From the NCBI GenBank assembly GCA_021807105.1, contig JAKAPL010000003.1, positions 13,017 to 77,016 of the forward strand: DNA of 64,000 nt, in the 5' to 3' direction. The notes beneath the pieces were generated by a model. The model worked only from the letters and a program-made list of their open reading frames with translations. It did not search any database and was not told where the DNA came from. Made by a program: the position numbers and the translations under genes. Source of the DNA: Myxococcales bacterium (lineage in GTDB: Bacteria; Myxococcota; Myxococcia; Myxococcales; JAKAPL01). Numbering within the stretch: the first letter of the stretch is position 1; every line of letters begins with the position of its first letter. Positions 2-63,992 of this stretch are shown here, piece by piece.

Positions 2-694
2 GCGGCCTCCCCCTCGCCCCCAGGCTCGCCGCCTACGGGAACCGCCGCCCTCTGGGAGGTCCTCGGCCACTTCGACGAGTACCCGGCCGCTGTCCCCTAC
101 CAGGTCGCGGACCAGATGAAGGTCGGGAGCGCGACGCTCCGGATGGCCGGGTTCACGACGGCCGATTCGCCCGCCAAGGTCCTCGCCTTCTACCGAGCCG
201 AGTTCGTGCGCGAGAAGCTGATCCTGCCCCCTGGCCCCCCTCCGGGAGACATCCCGTACGAGGGGCTGACGGGCTTCGACCTCCACGCGAAGCTCCAGAA
301 GACGGTGATGGTCATGGACGGAGGGGGGGGCCCGACCCGGGTGATCCTCAGCGTCTCCCCCGAGGCCGGTCTCGACGAGGAGACGCTCACCAGCGAGTCC
401 AAGGTCCCCGCGGGGCTGCCCGTCTTCCCCAAGTCCTCGGACGTCTTCCGAACCGACGGGGAGGACGGCCCCCGCTGGAGCAGCACCATCAGCTACCAGG
501 CGAGCGGCAAGCCGGCCGAGGTCCTCGACTACATCCGCAAGGGCCTCTCGGAGAAGGGCTGGGCCCAGGCGCCGGCGGCCGACACGTTGCCCGGGCAGGG
601 GCTGCGCTACTTGAGGTCCGGCGAATCCGTCGACATCATGCTGCGGCCGCTCGACCTCGGCTCGACCGAGGTCACCTACCTCTACGTGCACTAG
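2..694 (+). CDS. hypothetical protein, 5' end possibly outside window
   Basis: ORF-track ORF 116..694. The same frame stays open back to base 2 with GC-rich third positions, so the start is either ATG 116 or upstream of the window. No family motif recognised. The stop TAG (692-694) is part of the CTAG end of mini-element A1. Confidence 0.5.
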   Translation, partial: AASPSPPGSPPTGTAALWEVLGHFDEYPAAVPYQVADQMKVGSATLRMAGFTTADSPAKVLAFYRAEFVREKLILPPGPPPGDIPYEGLTGFDLHAKLQKTVMVMDGGGGPTRVILSVSPEAGLDEETLTSESKVPAGLPVFPKSSDVFRTDGEDGPRWSSTISYQASGKPAEVLDYIRKGLSEKGWAQAPAADTLPGQGLRYLRSGESVDIMLRPLDLGSTEVTYLYVH

Positions 695-972
695 GAGGCT
701 GGTGGGAACCCGTCTTATTCACGGTCCGGCTGCTGCGGCGTCCGATCCCACGCCTCCCGAAGGGGGGGCTTGCCACCCCTACCACGACATGGGGGGGTGT
801 GCTCGCTCCTTCCTCCTGCGGCGTGCTTTACGCGACGCCTCGTCGGTCGTCGCTCTCGCTTGCCCTTCTCGGCTCGCGGTCTAAAAACGCCTCGCTACGC
901 CGTACCGTGAATCAGACGGGCTTAGGTCTCGGCGCTCTCGCGACGGCACCCATTTCACATCAAGCCTCCTAG
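691..972. mobile_element. CTAG-flanked palindromic mini-element, family A copy 1 (carries a nested family-B MITE)
   Basis: Left end is CTAG|GAGGCTGGTG and right end is CATCAAGCCTC|CTAG. The right-end region is homologous to the copy at 2370..2493 (TTTCACA(C/T)C(A)AGCCTCCTAG). The two CTAGs supply the TAG stops of the convergent genes 2..694 (+) and rsmB (-). Confidence 0.5.
709..920 (+). mobile_element. MITE-like element, family B copy 1 (212 bp)
   Basis: Terminal inverted repeats are CCCGTCTTATTCACGGTCCGGC (left) and GCCGTACCGTGAATCAGACGGG (right). The body is homologous to 31144..31916 and, in reverse orientation, to 63220..63462. It sits inside element A1. Confidence 0.65.
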
Positions 973-2345
973 CGCTTCGCGAGCACCGCGGCGTAGAAGC
1001 CGTCGGTGCCGTGACGCTGCGGCCAGAGCCGCAGGCCGAGCTCCGACCGGAGCATCGCGGGGCCGCCCGCGAGCGGCTCGTCGAGCGCCGCCGAGAGGTC
1101 GGGGCCCAGGACCTCGCGCCAGGGAGCGACCGCGAAGTCACCCGACAGCGCGAGGAAGCGCGCCACGACCTCCTCGTTCTCCTCCCAGAGCAGGCTGCAG
1201 GTCGCGTACACGAGCCGGCCGCCCGGCCGGACGAGGGGCGAGAGCCGCTGCAGGATTGCGAGCTGCCGCGCCGCGTGATCGGCGATAGCCTCCTCGGACA
1301 GCCGCCGCCGCGCGTCCGGGTTTCGCCGCAGCGATCCCGTCCCGGAGCACGGCGCGTCGACGAGCAGGAGGTCGGCCTTCCCCGAGAGCCGATCGATCGC
1401 CGGGGGCAGCGGTCCCCCCTCGGCGATGGCGACGCAGCGGATGTTGTCGGCGCCCGCTCGCGCCGCCCTCGGACGCAGCATCGCCAGCCGGTCCTCGCGG
1501 GCGTCGAGCGCCCAGATCTCGCCCCGATTTCCCATCGCCGCCGCGAGCGCGAGGCTCTTTCCTCCCGCGCCCGCGCAGCCGTCGACGACCCGTCGCCCCG
1601 GTGGAACCCCGCAGGCCAGCGCGATGAGCTGGCTCCCCTCGTCCTGGACCTCGAAGAGTCCATCGTGGAAGGCCCGCAGCCCGAAGGCGTTGACGTGCGC
1701 GGGCAGGACGAGACCCCAGGGGGAGTAACGGCACGCCGCCGGCCGCGCGCCTTCGGCGGCCAGCCGTTCTCCGAGCTCCCCGGCCGCCGTCCGCAAGAGG
1801 TTCGCGCGAACCGTGAGCGGCGCCCTCCGGTTGAGGGCGCTCGCCAGCGCGGCGGTCTCCGCGGCGCCGAGCCGCCCGCCGAAGCGCGTCACGAACCAGC
1901 CGGGGAGGGACGTCTCGACGGCGATCCGTTCCCAGGGATCCTCCTCGCCTTCCAGGACGCTCCCGCGGAGCGCCGCCGCCCGCTCCGCCACCCGCCCTGG
2001 CAGCTCGCCCGGCGGAGGCGCGTCCCCGGCGAACGCCGCCGCGACGGCGAGCCGAAGCACGTCGAGGCGGGTCGCGGAGAGCGTCGCCCGTGGGACGCGC
2101 AATTCGCCCAGGGCGCGGTCGAGCACGGTCTCGACCAGCCGATCCTGCCGCAGGAGGCGGTAAACGGCCTCCGCGACCGCGCGCCGCTCGGCGCTCCAGA
2201 GTCCCCGCTCCCGGCGCAGCACGCGAGAGAGGGTCCGGTCGGCGAGCTGCCCCTCGGCGCGAATCGCCGCCAGGACCTCGAGGATGACCGCGAGGATCCG
2301 GTCGGGGCGAACGCGGCTCCGGAGACCCTGGGCTTTCACTCCCAT
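969..2345 (-). CDS. rsmB: 16S rRNA (cytosine-C5) methyltransferase, RsmB/Sun (NOL1/NOP2/Sun) family
   Basis: 458 aa. SAM-binding motif DGCAGAGGKS, catalytic motifs DAPCSGTGSLRRNPD and YATCSL, and an N-terminal NusB-like region. Confidence 0.85.
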   Translation of the reverse strand: MGVKAQGLRSRVRPDRILAVILEVLAAIRAEGQLADRTLSRVLRRERGLWSAERRAVAEAVYRLLRQDRLVETVLDRALGELRVPRATLSATRLDVLRLAVAAAFAGDAPPPGELPGRVAERAAALRGSVLEGEEDPWERIAVETSLPGWFVTRFGGRLGAAETAALASALNRRAPLTVRANLLRTAAGELGERLAAEGARPAACRYSPWGLVLPAHVNAFGLRAFHDGLFEVQDEGSQLIALACGVPPGRRVVDGCAGAGGKSLALAAAMGNRGEIWALDAREDRLAMLRPRAARAGADNIRCVAIAEGGPLPPAIDRLSGKADLLLVDAPCSGTGSLRRNPDARRRLSEEAIADHAARQLAILQRLSPLVRPGGRLVYATCSLLWEENEEVVARFLALSGDFAVAPWREVLGPDLSAALDEPLAGGPAMLRSELGLRLWPQRHGTDGFYAAVLAKR

Positions 2346-23878: not shown

Positions 23879-24867
23879 CGCTGGCCGTCCTGGCGGCCGG
23901 AAACCTCCCGGGCGACGCGCGCGAGATCCGCGTCGACCATGGTCTCGACGAGGCCGCGGAAGCCCACCGTCGGCTCCCAGCCGAGATCGCGCCGAGCTTT
24001 CCCTGCGTCGCCGACGAGGAGATCGACCTCGGCGGGACGGAAGAAGGCGGGATCGGTCACCACGTGTTCGCGCCAGTCGAGGCCCGCGCGGGCAAAGGCG
24101 ATCTCGCAGAACTCGCGGACGCTGTGGGTCTCGCCGCTCGCGATCACGTAGTCGTCCGGGCTCGGCCGCCGCAGCATCTGGACCATCATCCGCACGTAGT
24201 CGGGGGCGAAGCCCCAGTCACGCCGCGCGTCGAGGTTGCCGAGCCGAAGCTCTCGGGCGAGGCCGTGCCGGATGCGCGCGACCCCGTCGGTGATCTTGCG
24301 GGTGACGAACTCGCGGCCCCGGCGCGGCGACTCGTGGTTGAAGAGGATGCCCGCGCAGGCGAAGAGTCCGTAGCTCTCCCGGTAGTTCACGGTCAGGTAG
24401 TGGGCGTAGGTCTTCGCGACGGCGTACGGGCTGCGGGGGTAAAATGGCGTCCGCTCGTTCTGGGGTGTCTCGAGGGCCTTTCCGAACATCTCGCTCGAGG
24501 ACGCCTGGTAGAAGCGGATCTTCGGGTCGACCGTCCGGATGCCCTCGAGCATGCGGGTGACTCCGAGGGCCGTGTACTGCGCCGTCAGCTCCGGCTGGGA
24601 GAACGACGTCGGCACGAAGGACTGGGCCGCCAAGTTGTAGACCTCGACCGGCTCCGCTTGCTGGAGTGCGCGCAGCACGGAGGTCTGATCGAGCAGGTCC
24701 GCCTGGACCAGGGTCAGCCGGTCGCGCAGGTGGGCGATCCGCTCGAACGTCTCGGTGCTGCTCCGGCGCACCATGCCGAAGACCTCGCAGCCCCCGGCGA
24801 GGAGCTGCTCGGCGAGGTAGCTGCCGTCCTGTCCGGTGATGCCGGTGATGAGCACGCGCTCGCCCAT
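23875..24867 (-). CDS. gmd: GDP-mannose 4,6-dehydratase
   Basis: 330 aa. [40 protein letters not shown] and [11 protein letters not shown]. Confidence 0.9.
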
Positions 24868-24937
24868 GTCTCGCTCCTGTCGAACGGGCTACATAGCGCG
24901 GCGCCGGCGGCGTAAACAAGCTGCTATCCTCGACACG

Positions 24938-26053
24938 ATGCGCGATCGGACGGAGCGCGCCGATCTGGCGCGGGCCTGGGACCTCGTGGCTTTCCTGCTC
25001 GGGGAGCGGCGAACGTCTCCCGGGCCTGTTCGTCCGGCCGTCCTGCGCGAGCTCGCGCGGCTCCATCGGCTCGACACGATGCTCGCGCAGCCGCGGCTCA
25101 CGGCGGTCTCGCCGGCCGAGCACGTGGACGAGGAGACCTGGCGCGGGTGGCAGGCCGCCCGCAAGGCGGCCCTCGCTCAGGTGATCGCCCGCGGGCCGGC
25201 GTCGCGCCGGGCGTTGGATCGCTTGTTCCCGCTGCCGGTCATCGTCATCAAGGGCTGCGCCGCGGCGGAGTTGCTCTACCCATCCCCGGCCGATCGCAGC
25301 ACCGGCGACCTCGATGTGCTCGTCCGGATGCAGGATCTCGCTGAAGCGCTCGAGCGGCTGACCGACGCGGGCTTCTCGCGCCACAACGCGGGTGATCCTT
25401 CCTTTGATTCGCCGACGAGTCCGGAGCGGCAGCTTGGGAGCCCGGAGCTCGATCTGGATCTTCACCAGGCATTCACGCATCAGGCGCGGCTCCCGATCGA
25501 CTACGACGCGGTGTTCGCGCGTTCGCTCCCCTGGCCGGCGTTCGCCCCGAACGCGCGCCTGCTCGCGCCCGAGGATGCGGTCGTCTACCAGACCGTGCAC
25601 GCCGGTTGCGGCGAGCTGTCCGTCGCCACCGCGCCCGCGCTCGGCCTCTTCGACCTGCGCCTGATGCTCGCGCGCAAGGGACCGTTCTGGGGCGCCGCGG
25701 GCGGGCCGGCGCTCGACCTCGATGCCGCCGTACGCAGGGCGGCGGAGTGGGGCGCCGAGCGGATGTTCTATGCCGTGCTCTCCGCGGCCTCCCGCATCTT
25801 CCCGAGCCTCTCGCCGGCAGCCTCCGATGCGGCCGAGGCAGTGCCCATGCTCATCCGGACGTTGCTCGATCGCGTCATCGTCGACCAAGCCAGTCCGCCG
25901 CGCCTTCGCGCGCCCCCTCGCGCCGCAGTCCTCGTGCGCAAGGCGCTGCTCATTCGCCCCGCCGCCCGTCTCCGCCTCCTTCGCTACCGGCTTCCCCAGG
26001 TGGCCGCGGCGCGGCGCCGCCGGCCGGCAAAGGCGCGGCCGATGGTGGTATAG
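24938..26053 (+). CDS. uncharacterised nucleotidyltransferase-family protein
   Basis: Start at MRDRTERADL. The block VIVIKGCAAAELLYPSPADRSTGDLDVLV...LTDAGF resembles the 'putative nucleotidyltransferase' family seen next to peptide-modification and kinase genes. Confidence 0.5.
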   Translation: MRDRTERADLARAWDLVAFLLGERRTSPGPVRPAVLRELARLHRLDTMLAQPRLTAVSPAEHVDEETWRGWQAARKAALAQVIARGPASRRALDRLFPLPVIVIKGCAAAELLYPSPADRSTGDLDVLVRMQDLAEALERLTDAGFSRHNAGDPSFDSPTSPERQLGSPELDLDLHQAFTHQARLPIDYDAVFARSLPWPAFAPNARLLAPEDAVVYQTVHAGCGELSVATAPALGLFDLRLMLARKGPFWGAAGGPALDLDAAVRRAAEWGAERMFYAVLSAASRIFPSLSPAASDAAEAVPMLIRTLLDRVIVDQASPPRLRAPPRAAVLVRKALLIRPAARLRLLRYRLPQVAAARRRRPAKARPMVV

Positions 26054-26087
26054 GGAGCACAGGGTTCCAATCGACGGAACATTCCCC

Positions 26088-28292
26088 TTGCGGCGAGGCC
26101 TTCTCCTCATCGTGGGCGCGGCAGGGCTGATCATCGTCAGCCAGCCCGGCGTCCTGGCGCGGCCCTCGGCCGAAGGCAAGACGTCGGGCTCCGCGCTCGT
26201 CGAGCTGGTCGAGCCGGACTCGGCGTTCCACGAGGGCGCCCGCTGGCTCGCCGGGATCCTGGCCGTCCTGGGCCTGGTCGCGGTAGCCAGGACAATCGGT
26301 GAGGGCAGCCGCCCCCGCCCGGCCCCGCCCAACCGGAGGCCCCCGCCGCGGGTCCACCCGACGCCCGCCGCCACGCCCGCCGCGCTGGCGGCCGAAGCCG
26401 AGCGGCGCGGCGATCACCCCCGCGCCGCTTCCCTCTACGACGCCATCCACGACTGGGCCTCCGCCGCCCGCTGCTACGAGGCCGCGGCCCGCGCCGCACA
26501 GGAGGGCTCGCGCGAGCGGGGCTCGTTCCTGCAGCTCTTCGCCCAGCGTTCGTTCGCGGCTGGCCGGGCGGAGGTCGCGGCCGCGGCCCTCGCCGAGCTG
26601 GGCGACCTTCGCGGCGCGGCGGATCTCTGCGCGAAGGCCGGCGATCGCCACCGGCAGGCCGAGTACCTGGCGCGGGCGGGCGACGTCGCCGCCGCCGCCG
26701 CGGCGCTCGTCGAGGCCGGAGACCCCGCGGGCGCGGCGCAGGTCCTCGAAGCCGGCGGCGATGTCGAGGGCGCCGTGGCTCTCCTCGCCCCCCGTGACGC
26801 CCGGAGCGCCGCCCGCATGTGCGAGAAGCACGGCCTGTTCGCGCGGGCCGCTGAGCTGTACGCGGGCATCGGTGACGCCGACCTCGCCGCCCAACTCTAC
26901 CTGCACGCAGGCGATGGGGCGCGCGCCGCCCAAGTCTTCCGCGAGGCGGGCGATCTCGACTCCGCGGCCGAACAGCTCGCCGCGAACGGCGCCCTCGCCG
27001 AGGCCGCGGATCTCTGGCTCGATCTGGGGCAGCCGGAGCGCGCCGCGCAGGCGTTCCAGACGCTCGGCGATCCCGGGGGTCTCGCCCGGGCGTTCGAGCG
27101 GCGCGGCGATTTCGCCTCTTCTGCCCGGGAGTTTCTCAAGCTCGGCAAGTCGGAGGAAGCGATCCGGGTCGTCGCGCTCCTGCCGCCCGAGAAACGGGAC
27201 GTCCCGGCCGTCCGCCTGCTCCTCGGCGCCGCGCAGCTCAAACTCGGCCGGTCCTCGGACGCCGCGGCGACCGTCCGTCCGGTCGTCTCCCGTGGTGGGG
27301 CCGAGACGCGCCTGCGCTGCGAGGCGCTCTACCTCCTCGGGCTCGCCGCCCAGCAGGGCGGCGACATCCCGCAGGCGGTGACCTGCTTCGAGCAATGCCT
27401 CGCCCTCGATCATGGTTTCCGCGACGCGCCCCTTCGTCTTTCCCAGCTCCGGAACGCGACGCCGCCGCCCGGGCAGCTCTCCGCGTCCACCATCCTGCCC
27501 CGCCGCTACCTCCTGGTCTCCAAGATTGGCGAGGGGGCCATGGGCACCGTCTACAAGGCGAAGGACAGCGTCCTCGATCGGGTCGTCGCGCTCAAGGTCT
27601 TGAACCGCGCCCTTTCGGACAACGAGACGGCCCGGAGCTACTTCCTGCGGGAGGCGCGGGCGGCCGCGGCCCTCTCCAACCCACACATCGTGACCGTCCA
27701 CGACGCGGGGTTCGAGGGCGCGGTCCTCTTCCTGGTGATGGAGTTCCTCGACGGCGAGGATCTCGAATCGCTGTCGATGCGCGTCGGCGGCTTGCCCGAG
27801 CGGACGGCCCTGCGCTACGCGGCCCAGGTCTCCGATGCCCTTGCCGCGGTCCACGCCCAGAACATCGTCCACCGGGACGTGAAGCCGGGCAACGTCATGT
27901 TGCTCAAGGGCGGCGACTCGGTGAAGCTCATGGACTTTGGCATCGCACACCTCGCCTCCTCCGGCGGCTCGCGCCGGAAGATCACCAACGTCGCCGGCAC
28001 CCCGGACTTCATGGCCCCCGAGCAGCTCGTCGGCCAGGGACTCGGGCCCTGGACCGACATCTACGCCCTCGGGGGCACGCTCTATGAGCTGCTCACCGGA
28101 CAGGTCCCGTTCCCCGAAGGAGATCCCGCCGCCATGAACCGGGACCCGCCGCCCGACCCCCGGCGTCTCAAGCCGGACCTCCGCGTCGAGGTCGCCGACC
28201 TCGTCCGGGGCTGCCTCACGAAGGAGCCGCGCGCGCGGCCGCAGAGCGCCACGTCGTTGCGCGCCCGCCTCGAGCAGCTCGCCGTGGGGTGA
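26088..28292 (+). CDS. membrane-anchored Ser/Thr protein kinase with N-terminal helical-repeat region
   Basis: The C-terminal Hanks kinase has GEGAMGTVYKA, VALKVL, HRDVKPGNVML, DFGIA and GTPDFMAPE. The N-terminus has two TM helices and then ~10 short xAGDxxxAAxxx helical repeats. The start is uncertain: TTG 26088 or GTG 26112, with no in-frame ATG after the upstream stop. Confidence 0.8.
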   Translation: MRRGLLLIVGAAGLIIVSQPGVLARPSAEGKTSGSALVELVEPDSAFHEGARWLAGILAVLGLVAVARTIGEGSRPRPAPPNRRPPPRVHPTPAATPAALAAEAERRGDHPRAASLYDAIHDWASAARCYEAAARAAQEGSRERGSFLQLFAQRSFAAGRAEVAAAALAELGDLRGAADLCAKAGDRHRQAEYLARAGDVAAAAAALVEAGDPAGAAQVLEAGGDVEGAVALLAPRDARSAARMCEKHGLFARAAELYAGIGDADLAAQLYLHAGDGARAAQVFREAGDLDSAAEQLAANGALAEAADLWLDLGQPERAAQAFQTLGDPGGLARAFERRGDFASSAREFLKLGKSEEAIRVVALLPPEKRDVPAVRLLLGAAQLKLGRSSDAAATVRPVVSRGGAETRLRCEALYLLGLAAQQGGDIPQAVTCFEQCLALDHGFRDAPLRLSQLRNATPPPGQLSASTILPRRYLLVSKIGEGAMGTVYKAKDSVLDRVVALKVLNRALSDNETARSYFLREARAAAALSNPHIVTVHDAGFEGAVLFLVMEFLDGEDLESLSMRVGGLPERTALRYAAQVSDALAAVHAQNIVHRDVKPGNVMLLKGGDSVKLMDFGIAHLASSGGSRRKITNVAGTPDFMAPEQLVGQGLGPWTDIYALGGTLYELLTGQVPFPEGDPAAMNRDPPPDPRRLKPDLRVEVADLVRGCLTKEPRARPQSATSLRARLEQLAVG

Positions 28293-28416
28293 GCCTCGAA
28301 TACGTACCTTCTGCGCCGCTGTCTCACCCTCCGCCCCTTGCGCCCTCGCGCGCCGATCGCTAATCGTCGGCAGCCTCGCGCGGAAGGCGAGGACCGAGCG
28401 ACGAGGTCTTCAACCC

Positions 28417-31143
28417 ATGCGTGTCCATCGAATCCTTTTCCTCGTCGCGGGCGCCGGAGGAGGAATCCTCTCGGGTTGCTGCCCCCACCACGGCTCCGGC
28501 GGCTCGGGGACCATCGTCGGGGTCGACGGCGTCGGTAAGACCAGCGACCTCGACTTCGGCAGCGTCCTCGTCGGGCAGACCAAGACGCTCCAGCTCAAGC
28601 TCACCGACACGGGAGCGCAGGCCCTCGCCGTCTTGAACGTCGCGCTCTCCGGTCCGGACGCCCAGGACTTCAAGGTGCGCGGCAATCTGCCGCCCTCGAT
28701 CCAGCAGGACGCTACGGCCAGCGTCTCGGTGGTGTTCGCACCCTCCGCGGGCGGAGCCCGGACGGCGAACGTCACCATCCAGACCAACAGCCAGGAGACC
28801 CCCATGGTCACGGCCAAGCTCACCGGCGCGGGCATCGAGCTCGGCCTGTGCGCTCACCCCTCGACGCTGGACTTCGGCAACGTCCAAGTGCTCGGCACGC
28901 CGAGCGTCCAAGAGGTCGACCTCGGCAACTGCGGCCCGTCCCCGTTCTCCATCACGGCCGGTCCGGTCAAGGGGACGCAGGCCGGAGACTTCTCGCTGTC
29001 GGCGGAGACCTCGGCCACGCTGCCGCCGGGCGGGAAGCTCGTCGTATGGGTCAGCTACTCGCCGGCCGCCATCGGTCCCTCGTCGGCCTTCCTGCCCCTG
29101 ACCGTCAGCCTGACCGGCTGCACGAACTGCACGGCCCCATCGATCTCCCTCGCGGGCGTCGGCGTTGACGGAGCGCTCGTGTTCTCTCCGAGCCCGGTGA
29201 GCTTCCCCTCCGTCCCCGCGGGCACCACCTCGACCCAGAAGGTCCTGGTGAGCAACGTCGGCACCGAGCCGGTCACCATCGGGACCAACGACCTCGGCAC
29301 CCTGGGCGGGAACTCCGTCTTCACCCTGTCGGGCGTCCCTCAGCTTCCGGTGACGATTTCTCCCGGGGGGAACGTCCCGCTCTTCGTCGTCTACAGCCCA
29401 TCGAGTCAGGCCGGCGATCAGGACACGCTGGTCGCCTGGTGGTTCGTGAAGGATCCGAAGGTGTCCCCCCGGGAGGCGACGGATCTGCTCTCCGGCAATC
29501 AGGTCCTCGGACCGTGCAGCCTCCAGGTCGCGCCCGCCGCGCTGAACTTCGGCAACGTGAAGACGGCCACGCAGGCGACCGAGCAGGTCACCCTGACGAA
29601 CTCGGGCGGGACGGCCTGCAAGGTGTCGGGGATCACCCTCGACCCGGCGAGCGATCCGGACTTCGGCCTCGCCTCCGGGCAGGCGGTCGCGCTCGCCGTA
29701 CCCCCGGGCAGCAGTGCGAAGGTCGGCGTGACCTTCTCCTCCCCGCAGAACGCCAACGCCCCCCTCTTGCGCCGAGGCACGCTCGTCTTTACGACCGGCG
29801 ACCCACAGAACCCGAACGCCGCCGTACCTCTGTCCGCCTTCATCGACAAGGGCAGCGTCTACTCCGGCGGGTGGCCCAAGTGGCACCACGACAACGGCAA
29901 CACGGGCCAGACGGGCGCCGACACGTCCACCCTCAAGGGCACCGTCGGCTGGACGTTCAACGTCGGCAGCCCGACGGCTGGGAATGGCTGGCTCGGCGGG
30001 ACGTTCCTCGAGTCGCCGGTCATCGACGGGAGCGGCAACATCTACTTCCTGGAGATGGACGGCACCTACGTCGCGGTGAGCCCCGCGGGCCAGAAGCTCT
30101 GGTCGGTCGCGCTCTCGGATCCATCCCAGGACCCGCATCCCTGCACCCCCGCCATCCTCGCCGGTGGCAGCATGTACGTGAACTCAGGCTCCGAACAGAA
30201 CACCGATCCGAACCTGTACCTGATCTCCTCCTCCGGGAACATCCTCTACCAGACCACCTTCGGGGTGGAGGGGTTCTCCTCCACCCCCGGGCTCGGCAAC
30301 GACGGCGTCCTGTTCGAGGCGGACGACGACGGCATCCCGGGCAACGGTCCGGACAAGTTCGACATCATCGCCTTCCAGGCGCAAGCGAGCGGCCAGGTCA
30401 GCCAGATCGGGCAGTACCGGCTGCCCTTCTCGGTGCCCGGCGAGCGGCTCTCGGTCGCGATCGCCGACGACGACACGAGCTACTGGTGCAGCGGCGCCCA
30501 GTGCTTCGCGGTCTCGCCGCCGAAGAGCGGCTTCGCCCCGCTCCCGGCGTGGCCGGCGAGAGGCGTCACCCTCGCCAACACGGACCCGAACGCGCAGGAC
30601 AACGGCGACGGCGTGATCATCTCGGACCTCGCGGTCGATCTGTACGGGACGACGGGGTTCATTTACGCGTACGCGGGATGGGAAGACCTCGACCCGTCGA
30701 GCAACGACTACTCCGTCCAGGGCGTCCTCGTCGCCCTCGACCCCTCGAACGGCGCCCAGAAATGGACGATGCCGCTGCGGGCCGGCCCGCTGCCCTCGGG
30801 CTGGAACGTCCTGATGTCCGATTATGGGAACGCCCCGCCGGCGATCGGCAACGACGGGACGGTCTACGTCGGCAACGGCGACGGCCTGCACGCGGTGGAC
30901 GGGGCGACGGGCCAGCAGAAGTGGATCTTCAAGAGCGCCAACGTGAGCGACGCCCCGGCGGTCGGCGGCGACGGCACGGTCTTCTTCGGTTGCTCGGACG
31001 GCAACTTCTACGCCGTTGGAGCGGACGGCAGGCTCCGCTTCCAGATCCAGACGAAGGGGGCGATCAGCTCGTCCCCGGCGATTGCCACGGACGGCACGGT
31101 CGACTTCGTCTCCGACGACGGGAATCTCTACCACGTGAATTAA
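28417..31143 (+). CDS. large lipoprotein: four Ig-like (ASH / choice-of-anchor-D-like) domains plus a PQQ-type beta-propeller
   Basis: 908 aa. Lipobox ILSGC|C. Repeated LDFG(S/N)V.VG...V.L.N.G...L.I modules. The C-terminus has DGTVYVGNGDGLHAVDGATGQQKW and DGTVFFGCSDGNFYAVGADG propeller blades. Confidence 0.8.
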   Translation: MRVHRILFLVAGAGGGILSGCCPHHGSGGSGTIVGVDGVGKTSDLDFGSVLVGQTKTLQLKLTDTGAQALAVLNVALSGPDAQDFKVRGNLPPSIQQDATASVSVVFAPSAGGARTANVTIQTNSQETPMVTAKLTGAGIELGLCAHPSTLDFGNVQVLGTPSVQEVDLGNCGPSPFSITAGPVKGTQAGDFSLSAETSATLPPGGKLVVWVSYSPAAIGPSSAFLPLTVSLTGCTNCTAPSISLAGVGVDGALVFSPSPVSFPSVPAGTTSTQKVLVSNVGTEPVTIGTNDLGTLGGNSVFTLSGVPQLPVTISPGGNVPLFVVYSPSSQAGDQDTLVAWWFVKDPKVSPREATDLLSGNQVLGPCSLQVAPAALNFGNVKTATQATEQVTLTNSGGTACKVSGITLDPASDPDFGLASGQAVALAVPPGSSAKVGVTFSSPQNANAPLLRRGTLVFTTGDPQNPNAAVPLSAFIDKGSVYSGGWPKWHHDNGNTGQTGADTSTLKGTVGWTFNVGSPTAGNGWLGGTFLESPVIDGSGNIYFLEMDGTYVAVSPAGQKLWSVALSDPSQDPHPCTPAILAGGSMYVNSGSEQNTDPNLYLISSSGNILYQTTFGVEGFSSTPGLGNDGVLFEADDDGIPGNGPDKFDIIAFQAQASGQVSQIGQYRLPFSVPGERLSVAIADDDTSYWCSGAQCFAVSPPKSGFAPLPAWPARGVTLANTDPNAQDNGDGVIISDLAVDLYGTTGFIYAYAGWEDLDPSSNDYSVQGVLVALDPSNGAQKWTMPLRAGPLPSGWNVLMSDYGNAPPAIGNDGTVYVGNGDGLHAVDGATGQQKWIFKSANVSDAPAVGGDGTVFFGCSDGNFYAVGADGRLRFQIQTKGAISSSPAIATDGTVDFVSDDGNLYHVN

Positions 31144-31356
31144 CCCGTCTTATTCACGGTCCGGCTGCGGCGGCGTCCGATCCCGCAACGGTTCCGGTCC
31201 TCGCTCCGTCTGCGCTGGGGCGAGGAGCGAAGCTTTGGAGCTGCACCTTATCTCGCCGGCCGGCCGCGCCTCACACGGGGTGATCGCTTCTTACGGGCGG
31301 ATCAGGGCCGGGCTCGGTCCGGAGGTTCATTCCCACCGTCCGAGCGCTCCGCGGCC

Positions 31357-31566
31357 CCGTCCGCAGCCTCCGGGGCTCCGTCCGCAGCCTCCGGGGCTCC
31401 GTCCGCAGCCTCCAGGCTTCCGTCCGCAGCCTCCAGGCTTCCGTCCGCAGCCTCCGAGCTTCCGTCCGCAGCCTCCGGGCTTCCGTCCGCAGCTTCCGGG
31501 GCTCCGTCCGCAGCTTCCGGGCTTCCGTCCGCAGCCCCCGGGCTTCCGTCCGCTGGCGTGGGGCCT
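31357..31566. repeat. tandem array, 9-10 x 21 bp (CCGTCCGCAGCCTCCGGGCTT)
   Basis: Units start at 31357+21k and are exactly phased, with point variants only (CTCCGGGG / CTCCAGGC / CTTCCGGG). Confidence 0.9.
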
Positions 31567-31725
31567 TCGTCGATGGCCCCCAAGCCTCCGTCCGAGCCGC
31601 TGAAGCTTCCGTCGGGACCGGACGAGCCTCCGTCCGCGCCGGACGAAGCCTCGTCCACCGCGGACGGAGCGCTCCCGAGCGCGGACGAGGATCCGCCGCC
31701 GCGGGACGGGGCTCCGTCCGCGCCG

Positions 31726-31830
31726 GACGGAGGCCCCACGGCACGAGACGGAGGCCCCACGGCACGAGACGGAGGCCCCACGGCACGAGACGGAGGCCCG
31801 GCGGCACGAGACGGAGGCCCGGCGGCGGCG
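31726..31830. repeat. tandem array, 5 x 21 bp (GACGGAGGCCCCACGGCACGA)
   Basis: Units at 31726, 31747, 31768, 31789 and 31810. The first three are identical. Confidence 0.85.
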
Positions 31831-31917
31831 GCCGGTGCTCTCGCTTGCCCTTCTCGGCTCGCGGTCTAAGAACGCCTCGCTACGCCGTACCATGAATAAA
31901 CCGTGAATAAGACGGGC

Positions 31918-32613
31918 TCACGCCACGGCACGCGCGATGGCGAAGGCGGCCGCCGCGGCGAAGGAGCCGACGGCCGCGGTCTGGAGCGCTCCGCGGATAG
32001 GCCGCGAGCCGGTCAGGCGCGCCTTCACCCAGCCGAACGCGAGGAGCGCGAGGAGGGTGACGCCGATCGAGACGGGCAGTGCGGCACGGACGGAGCCGAG
32101 CACGGCGTAGGGCACGAGCGGCATCAGACCTCCGGCGACGTAGGCGGCGGCGATGATCGCGCCGCTCTCGAACGCGCGCCGCCCTTGCGGCCGTTCGAGC
32201 CCCAGCTCAAAGCGCATCATGAAGTCGACCCACCCCTCGCGGGTACGGCGGATGGCGGCGACAATCGGCGCGATCTCGTCCTCGGAGAGCCCGTAGGGGC
32301 GAAAGAGCTGCCGGACCTCCTCTTCCTCCATCTCCGGCTTCTCCCGCGTCTCGTCGATCTCCCGCCGCCGCTCGCGCTCGTAGTGTTCGGCGTCGGTGCG
32401 GGCCGCGAGGTACCCCCCGAGGCCCATCGCGATCGAGCCGGCCGCCACCTCGGCGAGCCCGGCGGTCAGTACGACGCCCGCCGAAGCGACGGCGCCCGAC
32501 AGGCCGGCGGCGAGGGCGAACGGGACGGTCAAACCGTCGGCCATGCCGATGACCACGTCGCGGACCGCGGCACTGCCCCGAAAGTGGCGCTCGACGTGCG
32601 GCGTCTGCGGCAT
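31918..32613 (-). CDS. VIT1/CCC1-family iron/manganese transporter
   Basis: 231 aa. VIGMADGLTVPFALAAGLSGA, a central acidic loop (EKPEMEEEE), and C-terminal TM helices. Confidence 0.75.
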   Translation of the reverse strand: MPQTPHVERHFRGSAAVRDVVIGMADGLTVPFALAAGLSGAVASAGVVLTAGLAEVAAGSIAMGLGGYLAARTDAEHYERERRREIDETREKPEMEEEEVRQLFRPYGLSEDEIAPIVAAIRRTREGWVDFMMRFELGLERPQGRRAFESGAIIAAAYVAGGLMPLVPYAVLGSVRAALPVSIGVTLLALLAFGWVKARLTGSRPIRGALQTAAVGSFAAAAAFAIARAVA

Positions 32614-32715
32614 GCGCGATCCCTCGGGGCCAAGGAATAGCGCGATTCGCCACGGGGGCCAATGGGAGAGAGGTCCGCGGGCGGGCGCTCGCGGGAGGCG
32701 ACCCCGCCCGTTCGC

Positions 32716-35700
32716 CTACCCCGAGCCCTCGCCCCATTGGACGAGCGCGATTGGAAACGTCCCGAGCAGCTCCGCGAGCGGAACGCCGATCCGGCCGCCC
32801 GCGCGTTCGATCCGAACGGGGAGCCCGGTGAACAGCTCGAGGGGCTCGCCGGCGAGCCCCTCGGGGAGGGCGAGCCAGGTGTCTCCCCAGGTGGCAGCGG
32901 GATCGAGCGTCTGACCCTCGCCGCCGAGCAGGCCAGCGACGAGCCGCGGGGCGACCGCCACGTCCGTGCGCGGGCCGAGGCGGCGGGCGAAGGCGACGAC
33001 GCGCTCCTCCTGCACGCCGGAGGCGGACAGCGGCAGGTAGTCGCCGCCGGCGAGCGGCGAGCCCGGCGCGGCCCGCGCCTGGAGGAGCAGCCAGGTCGAA
33101 AAGAGCTTCAGCCTTCCATCGTCGGGCCGGGTGAAGAGCGCCCGCGCCATGACCGCGCGGTGGGCGGGCTTCTCGGCGTCGGCGCGGATCTCGCGCAGGA
33201 AGCGCGCGCGCAGCTTGAAGTCCACGGACCGGCGGTTGTCGGGGTCGACGAGCGAGAGGTCCCATAGCTCGGTCCCCTGGTAGAAATCGGGTACGCCGGG
33301 CGAGGCCACCTTGAGCAGGAGCTGCGAGAGGCTGGTCATGACGCCGCAGCGGGCGATTCGCCGCTCGAAGGGAAGGAAGTCGTCGAGGAAGGGCGTCGTC
33401 TGCCGGGGCGGCGGCTCCTTGGGCAGCACGTGGCGCAGGAAGGCGACGAGCGCCTCCTCGTAGGCAGGATCTTGGTTAATCCAGCTCGTGTGGACCTTGG
33501 CCTCCCGGGCCGCCTTGACGAGATAGCCTTCGATTCGGCGGAGCAGATCGCCCCAGGCACGCTCGTTCAGCTCCCCGAAGGGCCAGACGCCGAGCAGCGT
33601 CTGGTAGAGGAGCAGCTCGGCGTCGGGGTCGGGCACCGGATCGTCGCCGTCCGCGGCAAGATGCGGGCGGTTCATCCCCCGCCAGCGCGAGAGCCGCGCC
33701 TCCCACTCGGACGGCAGCTCGGAGAGCGCATGGAGCCTCGCCCGCACGTCCTCGCCGCGCTTGGTGTCGTGGGTCGCGGTGGCGAGCAGGGAGTAGGGCG
33801 TCGCTCGGGTCCGCTCCTCGTTGCGGGCGTGGAACGCCGAGACGGGGGCGCCGAAGCGGTCGGGCTCGCCGCCCACCTCGTTGAGCGAGACGAGCCGGTT
33901 GTAGCGGTAGAACGCGGTGTCCTCGACGCCGCGCGCGGTCACCGGCGCGGTGAGCTGCTGGAGCCGCAGGGCGAAATGGCGCCGCTCGCGCCGCTGCGGC
34001 TCCGAGAGATCGGTCTCACCCCGCCGCAGGAGCACGTCGCCCAGAAACTCGTAGAGGGAGGCGCTCTGGTTGGGGTTGCGCCGCCGGGCGCGGTCGAGCG
34101 CGCTCTGGATGTGGCGCCGGTCGCGCTCGTCGATCGGCTCGTCCCCCTCGCGCAGGTAGGTCCGGTAGACCGGGAAGGCGGCGCACAATTCGACGAGGGC
34201 GGTGGTGAGGCTCCCCAAGGTGAAGTCGCGGGTGCGCCGGTCGGTCTCCGAGATTCGGTTGAGCTGGCGGGCGAGGACGTGAATCTCCGAGGACATCGTG
34301 GATTCCAGGATGAGGCGTTTCCCGCGGTAGGAGAGCTCGGGGAAGTCCACCCGCTCGCCCCGTACCGCCGCGTAGAGCCGGTCGAAGGGGGGCGCGTTCT
34401 CGGTGCGGACGAAGATGGCCGAGACGGCGTTCAGGAACTCGTAGCCGGTGGTCCCGTGGACCGCCCATTCGGAAGGGAGCTTCTCTCCGGGGAAGAGGAT
34501 CTTCTCGGCCACCACGTAGAGCGGGCGGAAGGACGGGTCGCGGGCGAGCGCTGCGAACCTCTCGCGAACCACGGGCTCAACCGCCTCCCACGCCCCGCCG
34601 GCCAGCTCCCGGGCCACCTCGAGCGCATAGCGGATCTGGAGCCGGCGGAAGTACTGGGTCGGATCGTAGAGCCCATCCGGGTGATCGATCCGCAGGCCGG
34701 TCGCCCGCCCGCCGCGAATCCGCTCGAAGATCCGGCGGTGGACCTCCTCGAAGACGACCGGGTCCTCGACCCGGATGGCGGCGAGCCGGTCGATGTCGAA
34801 GAAGCGCCGGTAGTTGACCTCCTCGCCGGCCACCCGCCAGTGGGCGAGCCGGTAGACCTGCGCGTCGAGCAGGGCGTCGAGCCGGTCGAAGCTCGCAGGG
34901 TCGCCCGTACGGCCGTTCACGTCGGCGACGTTCTCCGCGATAAAGCGGGCGACGATCTCGCTCCGCTCGCAAAGCCGCTGGAGGCGGCGCTTGTGGACCT
35001 CCTTCTCCCGCTGCCGCTCGGCCGCGCGCGAGGGCTCGGTCTCCCGCGCGGCAGGGAGGTGGCCGAAGGCGTTGATCAGGCTCTCGTAGTCCTGGAGCGT
35101 CTCGGTATCCGAGGCGAGGCGGGAGTGCAGCTCGGGAAGCCTGTGGGCGAGCAGGCGAGGGTACTCCCGGGGATCCAGCGGAAACCGCTGGTCGTGGTAG
35201 GTGAGCTCGAACGCGCCGCCGGCCTGCGAGACCGAGAGCTCGCCTCGTTCGAGAACGCGGCCATACTGATCGCCGAGGATCGGCAGGAGGACCTTTCCGC
35301 GCAGCTCCTCTTTGACCGGGCGCCAGTCGATGTCGAAGAAGACGGCCGCGGGTGAGCTGGGGCCGTTTTCCAGGACATCCATCCAGAGGGGGTTGCCGGA
35401 TCCGATCCCCATGTGGTTCGGGACCACGTCGAGAAGCGCGCCCATGCCGTGGCGGGCGAGGGCCTGCTCGAGCGCGTCGAGGTCCCCCTCCTCGCCCAGT
35501 TCGGGGTTCACGGTCTGGTGATCGACGATGTCGTAGCCGTGCGTGCTGCCGGGCGCCGCCCGCAGGTACGGCGACAGGTAGGCGTCGGAGACGCCCAGCG
35601 CCGCGAGGTAAGGCACGATCGCGGCGGCGTCCCGAAAGCGAAGAGCCGGCCCCAACTGGAGGCGGTACGTCGCCCGGGGGTGGCGCGCGCGCTCCGAGAG

Positions 35701-35775
35701 CCGCGCGAGCGTGGCCTCGACGAGGCTCTCCGGCGTAGGGCGTTCGGGCGCCGGAGCTCTCCGCAGATCGGCCAT
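32716..35775 (-). CDS. treY: malto-oligosyltrehalose synthase
   Basis: 1019 aa. ATYRLQLGPALRFRDAAAIVPYLAALGVSDAYLSPYLRAAPGSTHGYDIVDH, GLRIDHPDGL, and a GH13-type layout. Confidence 0.85.
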   Translation of the reverse strand: MADLRRAPAPERPTPESLVEATLARLSERARHPRATYRLQLGPALRFRDAAAIVPYLAALGVSDAYLSPYLRAAPGSTHGYDIVDHQTVNPELGEEGDLDALEQALARHGMGALLDVVPNHMGIGSGNPLWMDVLENGPSSPAAVFFDIDWRPVKEELRGKVLLPILGDQYGRVLERGELSVSQAGGAFELTYHDQRFPLDPREYPRLLAHRLPELHSRLASDTETLQDYESLINAFGHLPAARETEPSRAAERQREKEVHKRRLQRLCERSEIVARFIAENVADVNGRTGDPASFDRLDALLDAQVYRLAHWRVAGEEVNYRRFFDIDRLAAIRVEDPVVFEEVHRRIFERIRGGRATGLRIDHPDGLYDPTQYFRRLQIRYALEVARELAGGAWEAVEPVVRERFAALARDPSFRPLYVVAEKILFPGEKLPSEWAVHGTTGYEFLNAVSAIFVRTENAPPFDRLYAAVRGERVDFPELSYRGKRLILESTMSSEIHVLARQLNRISETDRRTRDFTLGSLTTALVELCAAFPVYRTYLREGDEPIDERDRRHIQSALDRARRRNPNQSASLYEFLGDVLLRRGETDLSEPQRRERRHFALRLQQLTAPVTARGVEDTAFYRYNRLVSLNEVGGEPDRFGAPVSAFHARNEERTRATPYSLLATATHDTKRGEDVRARLHALSELPSEWEARLSRWRGMNRPHLAADGDDPVPDPDAELLLYQTLLGVWPFGELNERAWGDLLRRIEGYLVKAAREAKVHTSWINQDPAYEEALVAFLRHVLPKEPPPRQTTPFLDDFLPFERRIARCGVMTSLSQLLLKVASPGVPDFYQGTELWDLSLVDPDNRRSVDFKLRARFLREIRADAEKPAHRAVMARALFTRPDDGRLKLFSTWLLLQARAAPGSPLAGGDYLPLSASGVQEERVVAFARRLGPRTDVAVAPRLVAGLLGGEGQTLDPAATWGDTWLALPEGLAGEPLELFTGLPVRIERAGGRIGVPLAELLGTFPIALVQWGEGSG

Positions 35776-35823
35776 CGGTCCGGGAAAGATGGAGACCCCG
35801 TCCGAACTCGGCCACGGCCTGGG

Positions 35824-36030
35824 CTACATCGGCGGCGCGGCGGCTTCGCGCGGCGCCCCGATCCCCGGGCGAAGCTCCCAGCCGGTGCAGCCGTTCGACG
35901 CAAAGACGGTCAGCCGGTACTTCACGTGAACCGGATGGAGGCAGGGCGCCTCCTCCTCCTCCAACGGCGCCGTCGCCGGACTTCCGAAGAACTTGCAGCT
36001 TCCGCAGTGTCCCCACTTCCCGTCGGCCAT
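35824..36030 (-). CDS. small four-Cys protein, function unknown
   Basis: 68 aa. MADGKWGHCGSCKFFGSP...APCLHP...SNGCTGW (a CxxC plus two further Cys). It lies between fdxA and treY on the same strand with GAGG upstream. This is the internal start of ORF 35824..36192. Confidence 0.35.
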   Translation of the reverse strand: MADGKWGHCGSCKFFGSPATAPLEEEEAPCLHPVHVKYRLTVFASNGCTGWELRPGIGAPREAAAPPM

Positions 36031-36086
36031 GGGTCGCCTCGCTTTCCGGCGAAACGGTGGAGACGCCCCGTGGCCGAGGCAAGTCC

Positions 36087-36425
36087 TTATGCGGCGAACG
36101 GGTCGAGCTTCAACATCTCGCGCTTCGGCAGGGTCTCCTTGAGCGACTCTGCCTCGGGCAGCGATTCCTTCTTCTCGTTGATGTTCGGCCACTCAGTGGC
36201 GAGCTTCGCGTTCAGCTCGACGTACTCCTTCCACTTCTCGGGCAGGTCGCTCTCGGCGAAGATGGCCTTCGTGGGGCAGACCGGCTCGCAAGCGCCGCAA
36301 TCGATGCACTCGTCGGGGTGAATGACCAGGAAGTTCACTCCCTCGTAGAAGCAATCGACTGGACATACCTCGACGCAGTCGGTGTACTTGCAGGCGACGC
36401 AGGGCTCGGCAACGATATAAGCCAC
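36087..36425 (-). CDS. fdxA: 7Fe ferredoxin (3Fe-4S + 4Fe-4S)
   Basis: GTG start with [46 protein letters not shown]...[16 protein letters not shown]. Confidence 0.85.
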
Positions 36426-36506
36426 GTTCTTTTTCCTCCTACGCGACCGGGAGACCACCGGCCGCCGATGGGTGGGGCCCCTATAGCATGAATTCGTCCG
36501 CGTGTT

Positions 36507-36962
36507 CTACTGGCTCGCGGCGGCCAGTTTCCGCTGCTCGACCATGAGGCAGCGGCCCTGGACGACCTGGATGCCCGCGCGGGCGAAGGTCTCCGCCGCC
36601 TCGTCGTTGAAGATGAGCGTCTGGAACCAGACCGCCCGCGGATGGGCCTTCAGGATGTCGGGGACGTGCGCGGGGATGTCCTCGGACTTGCGGAACACGT
36701 CCACCACGTCGATGGGGCCAGGGACGTCCGCCACCGTCCGATAGACGGGCTGGCCGAGGATCGTCGGCTGGCCGGGGTCCTGGACGGCAACCGGGAGGAT
36801 GGTGAACCCCACGCTCGCGAGGTAGGCGGGCACGTAGTAGGCCGCGCGCTCCGCGTACCGCTCGGGGCGGATGCCCAGCACGGCCACCCGCCGGAAGGAA
36901 CGAACGAGCTCGGCGATACGCCCGGGGTCCACGATCAGATTCTGGCGCCACTCGTCGTTCAT
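36507..36962 (-). CDS. CoA-binding domain protein (YccU/YneT-like)
   Basis: 151 aa. RVAVLGIRPERYAERAAYYVPAYLASVGFTILPV...IDVVDVFRKSEDIPAHV...AVWFQ. Confidence 0.75.
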   Translation of the reverse strand: MNDEWRQNLIVDPGRIAELVRSFRRVAVLGIRPERYAERAAYYVPAYLASVGFTILPVAVQDPGQPTILGQPVYRTVADVPGPIDVVDVFRKSEDIPAHVPDILKAHPRAVWFQTLIFNDEAAETFARAGIQVVQGRCLMVEQRKLAAASQ

Positions 36963-37041
36963 AGCCGGTTAGAGCCCCCCGTCCGTCCCGCCGGTTCTTT
37001 CCCGTTGACGCGCTCGCCGGGGGGGCGTAGACCGCGCGCCC

Positions 37042-39324: not shown

Positions 39325-39391
39325 GAGGCTGGTGGGAAACGGCTGCCTGCTGCGAAAGCCGAACCCTTCGCTGCGACGGGCGGCCTCCTAG
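39321..39391. mobile_element. CTAG-flanked mini-element family A copy 3 (71 bp, right end degenerate)
   Basis: CTAG|GAGGCTGGTGGGAAAC...GGCGGCCTC|CTAG. The first 18 nt are identical to copy 1 (CTAGGAGGCTGGTGGGAA). Confidence 0.45.
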
Positions 39392-39443
39392 TTCGCCGCC
39401 CGTGAGGTCATGGAGCGCCGCGCGCGCGCCGCTCTCCTTCCGG

Positions 39444-62556: not shown

Positions 62557-63075
62557 ATGAACGACGACCTGAAGCAGCTCATTCGCGATGTGCCGGGCTT
62601 TCCAAAGCCGGGCATCCTGTTTCGCGACCTGACGCCCCTGCTCGAAGAGCCCCGCCTCTTCCGGCAGGCGATCGATCGGCTGGCCGTGGAGTACTCGGGC
62701 GACGGCGTGCAGAAGGTCGCGGCCATCGAATCGCGCGGCTTCTTGTTCGGCGCGCCGCTCGCCTACGCGCTTGGCGCGGGCCTCTGCATCCTGCGCAAGC
62801 CGGGCAAGCTCCCGCGCAAGTCAGCGCGTGAGACTTACGCCCTGGAGTACGGCACGGACGCGCTCGAACTGCACGAGGATGCGCTCGCGATCGGCGAGAA
62901 CGTCCTCGTGGTCGATGACCTGCTCGCGACCGGCGGGACCGCGGCCGCGGCCGGCCGGCTCGTGCAGAAGCTCGGCGCCACGCTTGTCGGTTACAGCTTC
63001 GTCGTGGAGCTCTCCGACCTGGGCGGCCGGGCGAAGCTCGCCCACGACCGCGTGAACGCGCTGATTCGGTACTGA
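62557..63075 (+). CDS. apt: adenine phosphoribosyltransferase
   Basis: 172 aa. IRDVPGFPKPGILFRDLTPLL and the PRPP motif VLVVDDLLATGGTA. Confidence 0.9.
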   Translation: MNDDLKQLIRDVPGFPKPGILFRDLTPLLEEPRLFRQAIDRLAVEYSGDGVQKVAAIESRGFLFGAPLAYALGAGLCILRKPGKLPRKSARETYALEYGTDALELHEDALAIGENVLVVDDLLATGGTAAAAGRLVQKLGATLVGYSFVVELSDLGGRAKLAHDRVNALIRY

Positions 63076-63219: not shown

Positions 63220-63462
63220 CCCGTCTTATTCACGGTACGGCGTAGCGAGGCGTTCGAGACCGCAGCCGAGAAGGGCAAGCGAGAGCGACGACCGACGAGG
63301 CGTCGCGTAAAGCACCTCCCCCCAAGTCGTTTGGAGGGTGGCAAGCCCCCCGCGAGGAGGTACGGAGCGAGCACCCCCCCATGTCGTTGTAGGGGTGGCA
63401 AGCCCCCCCTTCGGGAGGCGCGGGATCGGACGCCGCAGCAGCCGGACCGTGAATAAGACGGG
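63220..63462 (-). mobile_element. MITE-like element family B copy 3 (243 bp, inverted orientation)
   Basis: It is the reverse complement of copy 1 with both TIRs intact (CCCGTCTTATTCACGGTACGGC ... GGACCGTGAATAAGACGGG). It has an internal ~31-bp duplication of the GGGGGCTTGCCACCC segment. Confidence 0.65.
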
Positions 63463-63992
63463 ATCAGAACCTCCTCTTCGAGGACAACGACCGGCCGGGC
63501 ATGCTCGGCGGCCGCGTGGTCCAGCGGCTCGTCCGGCGCCACCGGCTGCTGCCGAGCGCGCGGGCGCTCGTCGTCGGAGACGGCCCCGAGGCCGAGCCGA
63601 CCTGCCGCGCCCTGCTCGAATCGGGCGCGGACGTTGCCTGGGCGGGCGAGGGTGCCGGCCCCGATTTGCCCGGTCTCCGCCGCCTGCCGGGTCACCGCGT
63701 CCGCGCGGCGCGCGGCGGCGCCCGCGTGCGCGCGATCGAGCTTCAGGGACCGGACGGCCACATGCCCTTCCGCGCCGGGCTCGTCGCGGTCTGCGGTCCG
63801 CGCGCCGCGGCGTTCGAGCTGGGCGCCCAAGCCGGCCTGCCCGTCGAGCCGCGCGGCTCGCGCGGCTTCGTCCTGCGGGCGGGCGAGGACGGCGCGACCG
63901 CCCTCCCCTGGCTCTGGGCCGCCGGCTCCTGTACGTCGGCCGGCGTCGGATCGGACGTCCACGGCGCGCGCGCCGGCAGGGCCGCCGCCTAG
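63463..63992 (+). pseudogene. C-terminal fragment of a FAD-dependent oxidoreductase (HcnB / opine-oxidase-A / SoxA-like), truncated at the MITE
   Basis: The frame opens at the MITE edge and reads DQNLLFEDNDRPGMLGGRVVQRL...ALVVGDGPEA...LWAAGSCT. The NDxPG(M/V) and second Rossmann blocks normally sit mid-protein. Only 140 non-coding bp separate the MITE from apt, so no N-terminal half is present. An internal ATG at 63501 could still give a 163-aa product. Confidence 0.45.

Follow-up and report, generated by a model that had tools for sequence, protein, structure and literature searches.

The 64-kb window analysed here (the whole stretch of 64,000 nucleotides of Myxococcales bacterium DNA, from position 13,017 to 77,016 of the forward strand of contig JAKAPL010000003.1 in assembly GCA_021807105.1) carries three intergenic copies of a repeat that we refer to as ‘family B’, each bounded by terminal inverted repeats (TIRs); a repeat we believe represents a miniature inverted-repeat transposable element (MITE), related through its ends to insertion sequences (ISs) of the IS1380 family. 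Starting with copy 2, a 773-bp element at 31144..31916 (+), we see that its left end begins immediately after the TAA stop codon (31141–31143) of an open reading frame (ORF), 28417..31143, that encodes a 908-amino-acid (aa) protein with ASH/Cep192-type Ig domains and PQQ-like propeller repeats. To its right lies a VIT1-family ORF, 31918..32613(−), whose stop codon sits one base past the end of the element, such that the whole of the convergent stop-to-stop gap is element; an arrangement already described in an earlier reading of this DNA made from its letters alone (the ‘original prediction’), and one that our analysis bears out. Copy 1, the 212-bp short form (709..920, +; left TIR 709–730, right TIR 899–920), also occupies a convergent gap, between an ORF at 116..694(+) and an RsmB/F-like gene at 969..2345(−). 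The 243-bp copy 3 (63220..63462, −) is a long form and lies between two co-directional genes: that for APRT (62557..63075, +) and one for a protein of 163 aa (63501..63992, +).

The limits of the three copies are readily recovered with a pattern search. Allowing for up to three mismatches, the 17-mer CCCGTCTTATTCACGGT has six matches in the window against an expectation of 0.05 (none of 100 shuffles reached six), and these fall into three inverted pairs: 709(+) with 920(−, with the single mismatch of the copy 1 right TIR), 31144(+) with 31916(−), and 63220(+) with 63462(−); thus the coordinates, TIRs and sizes (212, 773 and 243 bp) first proposed for the family all hold. Over the full repeat, the two ends are identical at 21 of 22 nucleotides (nt), reading GGTCCGGC at one end and GGTACGGC at the other. 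Inside this, the copies have 43–44 nt of subterminal sequence in common on the left side and about 72–98 nt on the right; outside it, similarity between copies ends at the TIR tips. Family B has two canonical forms, of 212 bp and 243–245 bp, the longer differing by duplication of an internal G-run/C-run hairpin module; a duplication that had been claimed for copy 3 and is indeed present there.

The ends of family B find their counterpart in the IS1380 family. A locus from a Caulobacteraceae metagenome-assembled genome (L047; handles of this kind denote the loci compared) was obtained by scanning a genome collection with a 15-base pattern, which proved too degenerate, with most of its matches due to chance. 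Within L047, inverted copies of the family-B 17-mer enclose an element of 1629 bp, whose single 447-aa ORF scores 407 bits against NCBIfam NF033539 (transpos_IS1380; cut-off 180) and 532 bits against Pfam DDE_Tnp_1_4. The termini of family B are identical over 17/17 nt, at both ends, to those of L047, L095 and L096, and ends of this kind also occur in related elements carried by alphaproteobacterial plasmids and annotated as ISMex4- or ISBdi2-family. Scanning JGI metagenomes with an IS1380 transposase returned 80 loci; the 80 were pooled with L047 and a pair of plasmid loci to give 56 complete elements of 1600–1966 bp, among them an ISMex4-family copy, and each of the 56 ends in CCCGTCTTATTCAC..., with a 14-nt consensus common to all. 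Judged on sequence, we regard the assignment of the family-B ends to the IS1380 family as firm. No ORF matching DDE_Tnp_1_4 or NF033539 is found in any copy or elsewhere in the window, indicating that family B is a derivative rather than a member IS. It resembles the ISMex4/ISBdi2/L047 clade in its TIR, CCCGTCTTATTCAC(GG), and in having a short T/A-centred target that abuts the CCC terminus, but differs from it in having no transposase gene, in its size (212–773 bp as opposed to 1600–1966 bp), in the form of its flank motif (see below) and in its host lineage, which has a GC content of 70% and has come to light through metagenome assemblies alone. The MITE itself was recovered from a single species, in its ENA, Logan and NCBI assemblies, and nowhere else: searches for the exact 22-mer in JGI metagenomes, for the 17-mer in viral contigs, and with the 212-bp copy (blastn) in plasmids gave no match.

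Moving outwards from the termini, the IS relatives are flanked by a 4-bp YTAR sequence, CTAG making up 33 of the 56 left flanks and 35 of the 56 right flanks; in 34/56 elements the left and right flanks are identical, indicating a genuine 4-bp target duplication in the IS clade. The ends of the MITE abut a related sequence. Among the first 14 ends collected, 13 have a T at position −4 and every one has an A at position −2 (P values near 1e-10 and 1e-12, respectively, against a base composition of about 15% T and about 15% A), and a fifteenth, from L181 (CTTAC), also fits, bringing the ends that carry (c)TNA(r) to 14 of 15. With weaker preferences for C at −5 and for G or A at −1, the motif becomes (C)T-N-A-(G), which is the CTAG target of the IS clade opened by one central base, and which stays within the 4–5-bp range of the family; IS1247, an IS1380-family element, makes a 5-bp duplication (PMC3281130, Table 2). 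A 5-bp flank motif is thereby documented beside the 4-bp CTAG duplication of the related clade. For individual copies, the left/right flanks read CTGAT/CTGAA (copy 3), CTAAG/CTGAG (L087), CTCAC/TTCAA (L088), ATTAA/CTCAC (copy 2) and GGGAA/CTTAG (copy 1), the first two being the best-matching pairs. Target-site duplications of 3, 4 or 5 bp were modelled, both at the terminus itself and shifted by one base, and no model fits all copies.

The same motif accounts for the exact fit of copy 2 into its gap. Read towards the element, T-N-A is a stop codon whenever N is A or G. At the left of copy 2, in the flank ATTAA (31139..31143, +), the T-N-A overlaps the TAA that ends the 908-aa gene; at the right, in the flank CTCAC (31917..31921, +), the letters TCA read on the minus strand as TGA, the stop of VIT1. 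Copy 2 thus lies flush against both stop codons because its flank motif doubles as one. CTNAG is rare in this genome of 70.5% GC, with 27 sites in 64 kb. We envisage that an IS1380-family DDE transposase would act in trans, binding the 17–22-bp TIRs (CCCGTCTTATTCACGGT...), and that the element would insert into short T/A-containing (C)TNA(G) targets; with such sites scarce at 70% GC and often stop codons, copies would gather in intergenic DNA and might abut stops exactly, a simple reason for finding elements flush against stop codons in high-GC genomes.

The flanks also bear on which enzyme moves the family. Insertion at CTAG or TNA is a trait of the IS5 and IS1031 groups, and one could suppose that an IS5-family transposase, or a REP-associated tyrosine transposase (RAYT) working on a REP/REPIN-type element, mobilises family B, its IS1380-like terminus being convergent. 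If the terminus were one base longer, the T-N-A, which lies one base off CCCGTC, would become a 3-bp TNA duplication, with matching pairs in copy 3 (TGA/TGA) and L088 (TCA/TCA); the failure to find an IS1380 transposase in the ~130 kb of host-species and relative DNA searched would be in keeping with this. Saying this, the 3-bp model fits only two of five independent copies, no better than the motif itself predicts, and the base beside CCCGTC varies among copies in a manner unlike a true terminus. The 17-nt identity with IS1380 inverted repeats at both ends, and the 14-nt consensus in 56 such ISs, argue in the same direction, and no RAYT or IS5 transposase turned up in the loci examined, although no search was aimed at either. 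Family B does not fit the REP/REPIN pattern, since its termini are IS1380 inverted repeats (RAYT was not specifically searched for). We consider mobilisation by such an enzyme very improbable, and retain an IS1380-type transposase as the putative agent.

Additional copies were found by taking all six reading frames of the 212-bp copy as one pseudo-protein and comparing this with a protein collection; an approach that works through two spurious ORFs that lie over copies. Two complete copies, each 97.6–98% identical to copy 3, occupy divergent gaps: one upstream of atpH (L087:2874-3118) and one next to lexA (L088:8456-8703). Further ends or copies lie at L080:13622 and L172:1-190, and distinct flanks are present in L171, L172 and L181, such that the family is dispersed over about ten flank contexts within the same species, in convergent, co-directional and divergent gaps and in both orientations. 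For copy 1, no record was found of the 192-aa ORF upstream, and the 458-aa gene led to nothing more than a short contig, which stops 13 nt short of the element. The stretches L088:10546-18875 and L089:1-373, from the same species, hold a BREX-type defence cluster (BrxA, BrxC/PglY and a PglX-like methyltransferase), which lies about 1.8 kb from a family-B copy, and an ORF with a group II intron maturase domain.

Copies of family B coincide with breaks in the assemblies of this organism. The window is identical (100%) to two contigs of the ENA assembly ERZ27237364, L090 over 18417–31656 and L081 over 31692–42613, the break between them falling in the middle of copy 2, and the short-read contigs L082, L083, L173, L174, L180, L182 and L183 terminate at the element or within it, as does L080 at its end. 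Family B thus explains breaks and mis-joins in the short-read assemblies.

Junctions also differ between contigs. Beside APRT, the window, L181, L182 and L183 all have the right end of the element next to the unique flank (...cgcccttcag), whereas L184, which comes from another sample, has the left end there. The terminal k-mers of L184, which has a k141-type name, span this junction and, being apparently of single-read origin, indicate that the join is not an assembly artefact; we infer from these k-mers that the element exists in both orientations at this site, by way of a TIR-mediated flip or of excision followed by re-insertion. On the other side of copy 3, its left end together with the 163-aa gene is joined to three right-side contexts (in the window, L171 and L172), and its APRT side to two left-side contexts (in the window and L181). 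The window junction at 63462/63463 is contradicted by L181 (k141_59549 of ERZ27237364), which is 99.94% identical to the window over 60057–63462. Given that the two sides of copy 3 are joined to differing contexts among contigs, this junction is not secure; the window may be chimeric at this point, or two arrangements may coexist, and we flag it accordingly as possibly chimeric.

Turning to other species, the nearest VIT1 homologue is 76% identical. Among the nearest relatives (VIT1 75% identical; L176–L179 include GCA_021778955.1), the family-B element is missing from five loci, one being the orthologous 3′ end of VIT1, and 37 kb of their sequence is free of it; it is not, therefore, a motif present at orthologous positions in all relatives, the finding that according to the original prediction would have spoken against a mobile element. 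A different gene lies downstream of VIT1 in the relatives. There, the VIT1 stop overlaps that of a convergent gene for a UbiE-like methyltransferase within a CTAG (L176:2679-2682, L178:4831-4834), which supplies TAG stops on both strands and is the same tetranucleotide as is preferred by the IS1380 clade. Further downstream, the synteny in the relatives (Ppx-GppA, TolB, TonB, ExbD, ExbB) is unlike that of the window.

When folded, as had been suggested at the outset, the three window copies give very stable hairpins, with z-scores of −7.3, −7.3 and −5.9; copy 1 forms a single long hairpin of −110.5 kcal/mol (z = −7.3). This stability, and the intergenic position of all three copies, two of them between convergent genes, would also be expected of a structural or regulatory motif of the host, such as a terminator, small RNA or RNA-stability hairpin at gene ends, kept in place by its function and not by transposition. 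A stable hairpin is, though, expected for any element with long inverted ends, and the ends in question are IS1380 inverted repeats. Scanning the whole window with Rfam 15 gives no match at the gathering score, and neither a sigma-70-like promoter nor an intrinsic-terminator consensus is present in or next to any copy. The occupation of all gap types, including divergent, promoter-side gaps, and in both orientations, makes a terminator or other gene-end regulatory motif unlikely, and the absence of the element from the orthologous VIT1 end and from the 37 kb of the nearest relatives is hard to reconcile with conserved function. Overall, we give a host motif very little credence.

The original interpretation of family B as a MITE is thus supported by IS1380 inverted repeats at its termini, dispersal over about ten flank contexts, coincident contig breaks and absence from the nearest relatives. 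More precisely, we consider it to have arisen by deletion from an insertion sequence of the IS1380 family, with loss of the transposase gene, and would put the probability of this at roughly 85%. Several observations weigh against it. Past the terminal 17–27 nt, blastn-short detects no similarity between the MITE and 84 IS loci (the 80 metagenome loci, L047 and three plasmid loci). A tblastn search with an IS1380-family transposase finds no match in the window, in line with what was first claimed, nor in ~130 kb of host-species and relative loci; of the autonomous partner that had been proposed as a check, it can therefore be said that IS1380 elements with identical 17-nt TIRs exist elsewhere, but that none was found in this DNA. 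Left and right flanks of the MITE agree at about 2.8 of 5 positions on average against roughly 2.9 expected (an estimate from motif frequencies); this is no better than the shared motif predicts, and a target-site duplication of the MITE is as a result not demonstrated, as the original prediction had itself noted in reporting no consistent duplication. Exchange between copies, age or mis-assembly are possible causes of the mismatched flanks. Within the species, no clean empty site came to light, and the junction variants at copy 3 reflect either recombination between copies or chimeric assembly over a 243-bp repeat.

In its general properties, family B is much like the MITEs known from other bacteria (Correia, ERIC, RUP, TIMEs; PMC4133298): small, non-coding and bounded by TIRs, with dispersed intergenic copies, a stable hairpin, and length subfamilies with common ends; it differs in that target-site duplications are not recoverable. 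Family B connects MITEs with ends of IS1380 type, a link for which we found no published example in the literature searched, though this is not proof that none exists. The target of piggyBac is TTAA, and its termini likewise begin 5′-CCC with a short, palindrome-like T/A tetranucleotide target abutting the terminus, the equivalent in the IS clade here being CTAG/YTAR; this likeness reflects a distant family relationship only. IS1380 transposases serve as the prokaryotic outgroup of piggyBac (PMC10813416). None of this changes the understanding of MITEs; the value of family B lies in annotation, in population structure, and as a marker of strain-level structural variation.

Returning to copy 2, only 44 nt at its left and about 90 nt at its right derive from the family. 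The left-terminal segment (31144..31187, +), made up of the TIR and subterminal GGCGTCCGATCCCGC, is 98% identical to copies 1 and 3. It is followed by a unique, non-repetitive stretch of 148 nt (31188..31335, +), in which strains differ by indels of +1 and −2 nt, and then by a tandem array of about 10.4 units of 21 bp (CCGTCCGCAGCCTCCGGGCTT; 31336..31553, +), whose unit number varies among strains. A central palindrome with 19-nt arms and a 4-nt loop occupies 31628..31669; it is around this palindrome that the ERZ27237364 contigs end, at 31656 and 31692. Beyond it lies a second 21-bp array, of 4.5 units (GACGGAGGCCCCACGGCACGA; 31726..31820, +), with fewer units in contig L080; this array is a rough inverse of the first and falls within the right arm (31726–31835) of a 110-nt inverted repeat, the left arm of which (31462–31571) is 70% complementary. 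The right-terminal segment (31826..31916, +) holds an 11-bp tandem duplication inside its TIR (31889–31910; ACCATGAATAA ACCGTGAATAA), which the window, L081 and L082 share and which L080 and L083 lack. The description of copy 2 as an ‘expanded copy’ is therefore right in that family ends surround a larger element, but not in what has been expanded: the ~640-bp interior is unrelated to the family and replaces its core, as opposed to amplifying it. Between strains, then, copy 2 varies by whole 21-nt units, by the +1/−2 nt indels of the unique part and by the 11-nt TIR duplication; the changes in unit number probably arise by replication slippage or unequal exchange.

Coding potential was considered for this interior and rejected. 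There is no Pfam match in any frame; an open frame of PSAASGA heptads has no start codon before 31558, and a 232-aa ORF called in the L080 interior has no credible N-terminus. With strains differing by frame-breaking indels, these points lead us to regard the interior as a non-coding, hairpin-forming minisatellite. A six-frame pseudo-protein search for a second copy of it gave no matches, a result that is uninformative on uniqueness as low complexity probably swamped any candidates.

How family ends came to surround this sequence may be explained in more than one way; either foreign DNA was captured between two ends, or the whole could have arisen through illegitimate fusion. In its strongest form, the second possibility is that copy 2 is not one element at all but a fusion, or an assembly artefact, in which a truncated MITE right end beside VIT1 and a truncated left end beside the 908-aa gene have come to lie around native repeat DNA. 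Contig L080 (99.2% identical) favours this view: it keeps VIT1, the right end and all of the interior, yet at precisely 31187/31188, the inner edge of the 44-nt left segment, it passes into unrelated DNA. The flanks of copy 2, ATTAA and CTCAC, are unmatched, the relatives carry a different gene downstream of VIT1, and the (uninformative) search produced no second interior. Working in the opposite direction, L089 (99.5%) and L090 (100%) join the 908-aa gene, left end and interior just as in the window, and L080 and L089 both cross the centre; with L081, these independent contigs cover both junctions and the centre of copy 2, making outright mis-assembly in the window unlikely. Taken as a whole, we view this alternative as possible, if somewhat doubtful; its biological-fusion version concerns only how copy 2 arose, and so is compatible with family B being a MITE. 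A degenerate left end was also looked for at the L080 junction, with a local alignment no better than shuffles (p about 0.19). In place of the 44-nt left segment and the 908-aa gene, L080 carries 2.2 kb with two ORFs of 266 and 388 aa (L080:11394-13621), and then another family-B element.

Known systems offer parallels for passenger DNA between such ends. Mobile insertion cassettes (MICs) consist of IS ends flanking non-transposase DNA, and copy 2 likewise has IS-type ends around a passenger; its passenger is, however, a non-coding minisatellite and not a gene, and only one such copy is known. ISEcp1 transposition units, also of the IS1380 family, mobilise adjacent DNA. The transposable modules (TMos) of ISPme1/IS1247a show that neighbouring DNA of differing length, with no relation to the IS, can be moved by IS1380-family transposases (PMC3281130); along such a route, unrelated sequence might have found its way between the family ends of copy 2. 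A TMo has a complete IS at one end and a surrogate second end, whereas copy 2 has two genuine short ends, no IS, and only putative mobility.

A more ambitious proposal would be that family B still transposes today and is a driver of structural variation among strains of this uncultured lineage, with copy 2 a newly formed mobilisable cassette that captured a hairpin-forming minisatellite by means of an IS1380-type transposase. Signs fitting such activity would be the flip or re-insertion beside APRT, the alternative junctions seen for copies 2 and 3, and a VIT1 neighbourhood that has been rearranged; we nevertheless hold the proposal to be improbable. Were it true, copy 2 would be a bacterial counterpart of the gene- or satellite-carrying non-autonomous elements of piggyBac-like type.

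Other repeats are present in the window. A second MITE family, unrelated to family B, has a 179-bp copy at 4935–5113, with TIRs CTTGGGGTTCGCCCTTTTCGCC / GGCGGGAAAAGGGCGAAACCCAAG and flanks TCTGA/TCCGA; a 91% identical copy at L171:4540-4714 has a perfect 5-bp duplication (TCTGA/TCTGA), and another lies at about 4534–4721 of L172. Lastly, tandem repeats with units of 147 nt and 156 nt, both multiples of three, occupy 10507–11107 and 42894–43520, respectively, the first with internal palindromes; these are probably coding repeats.

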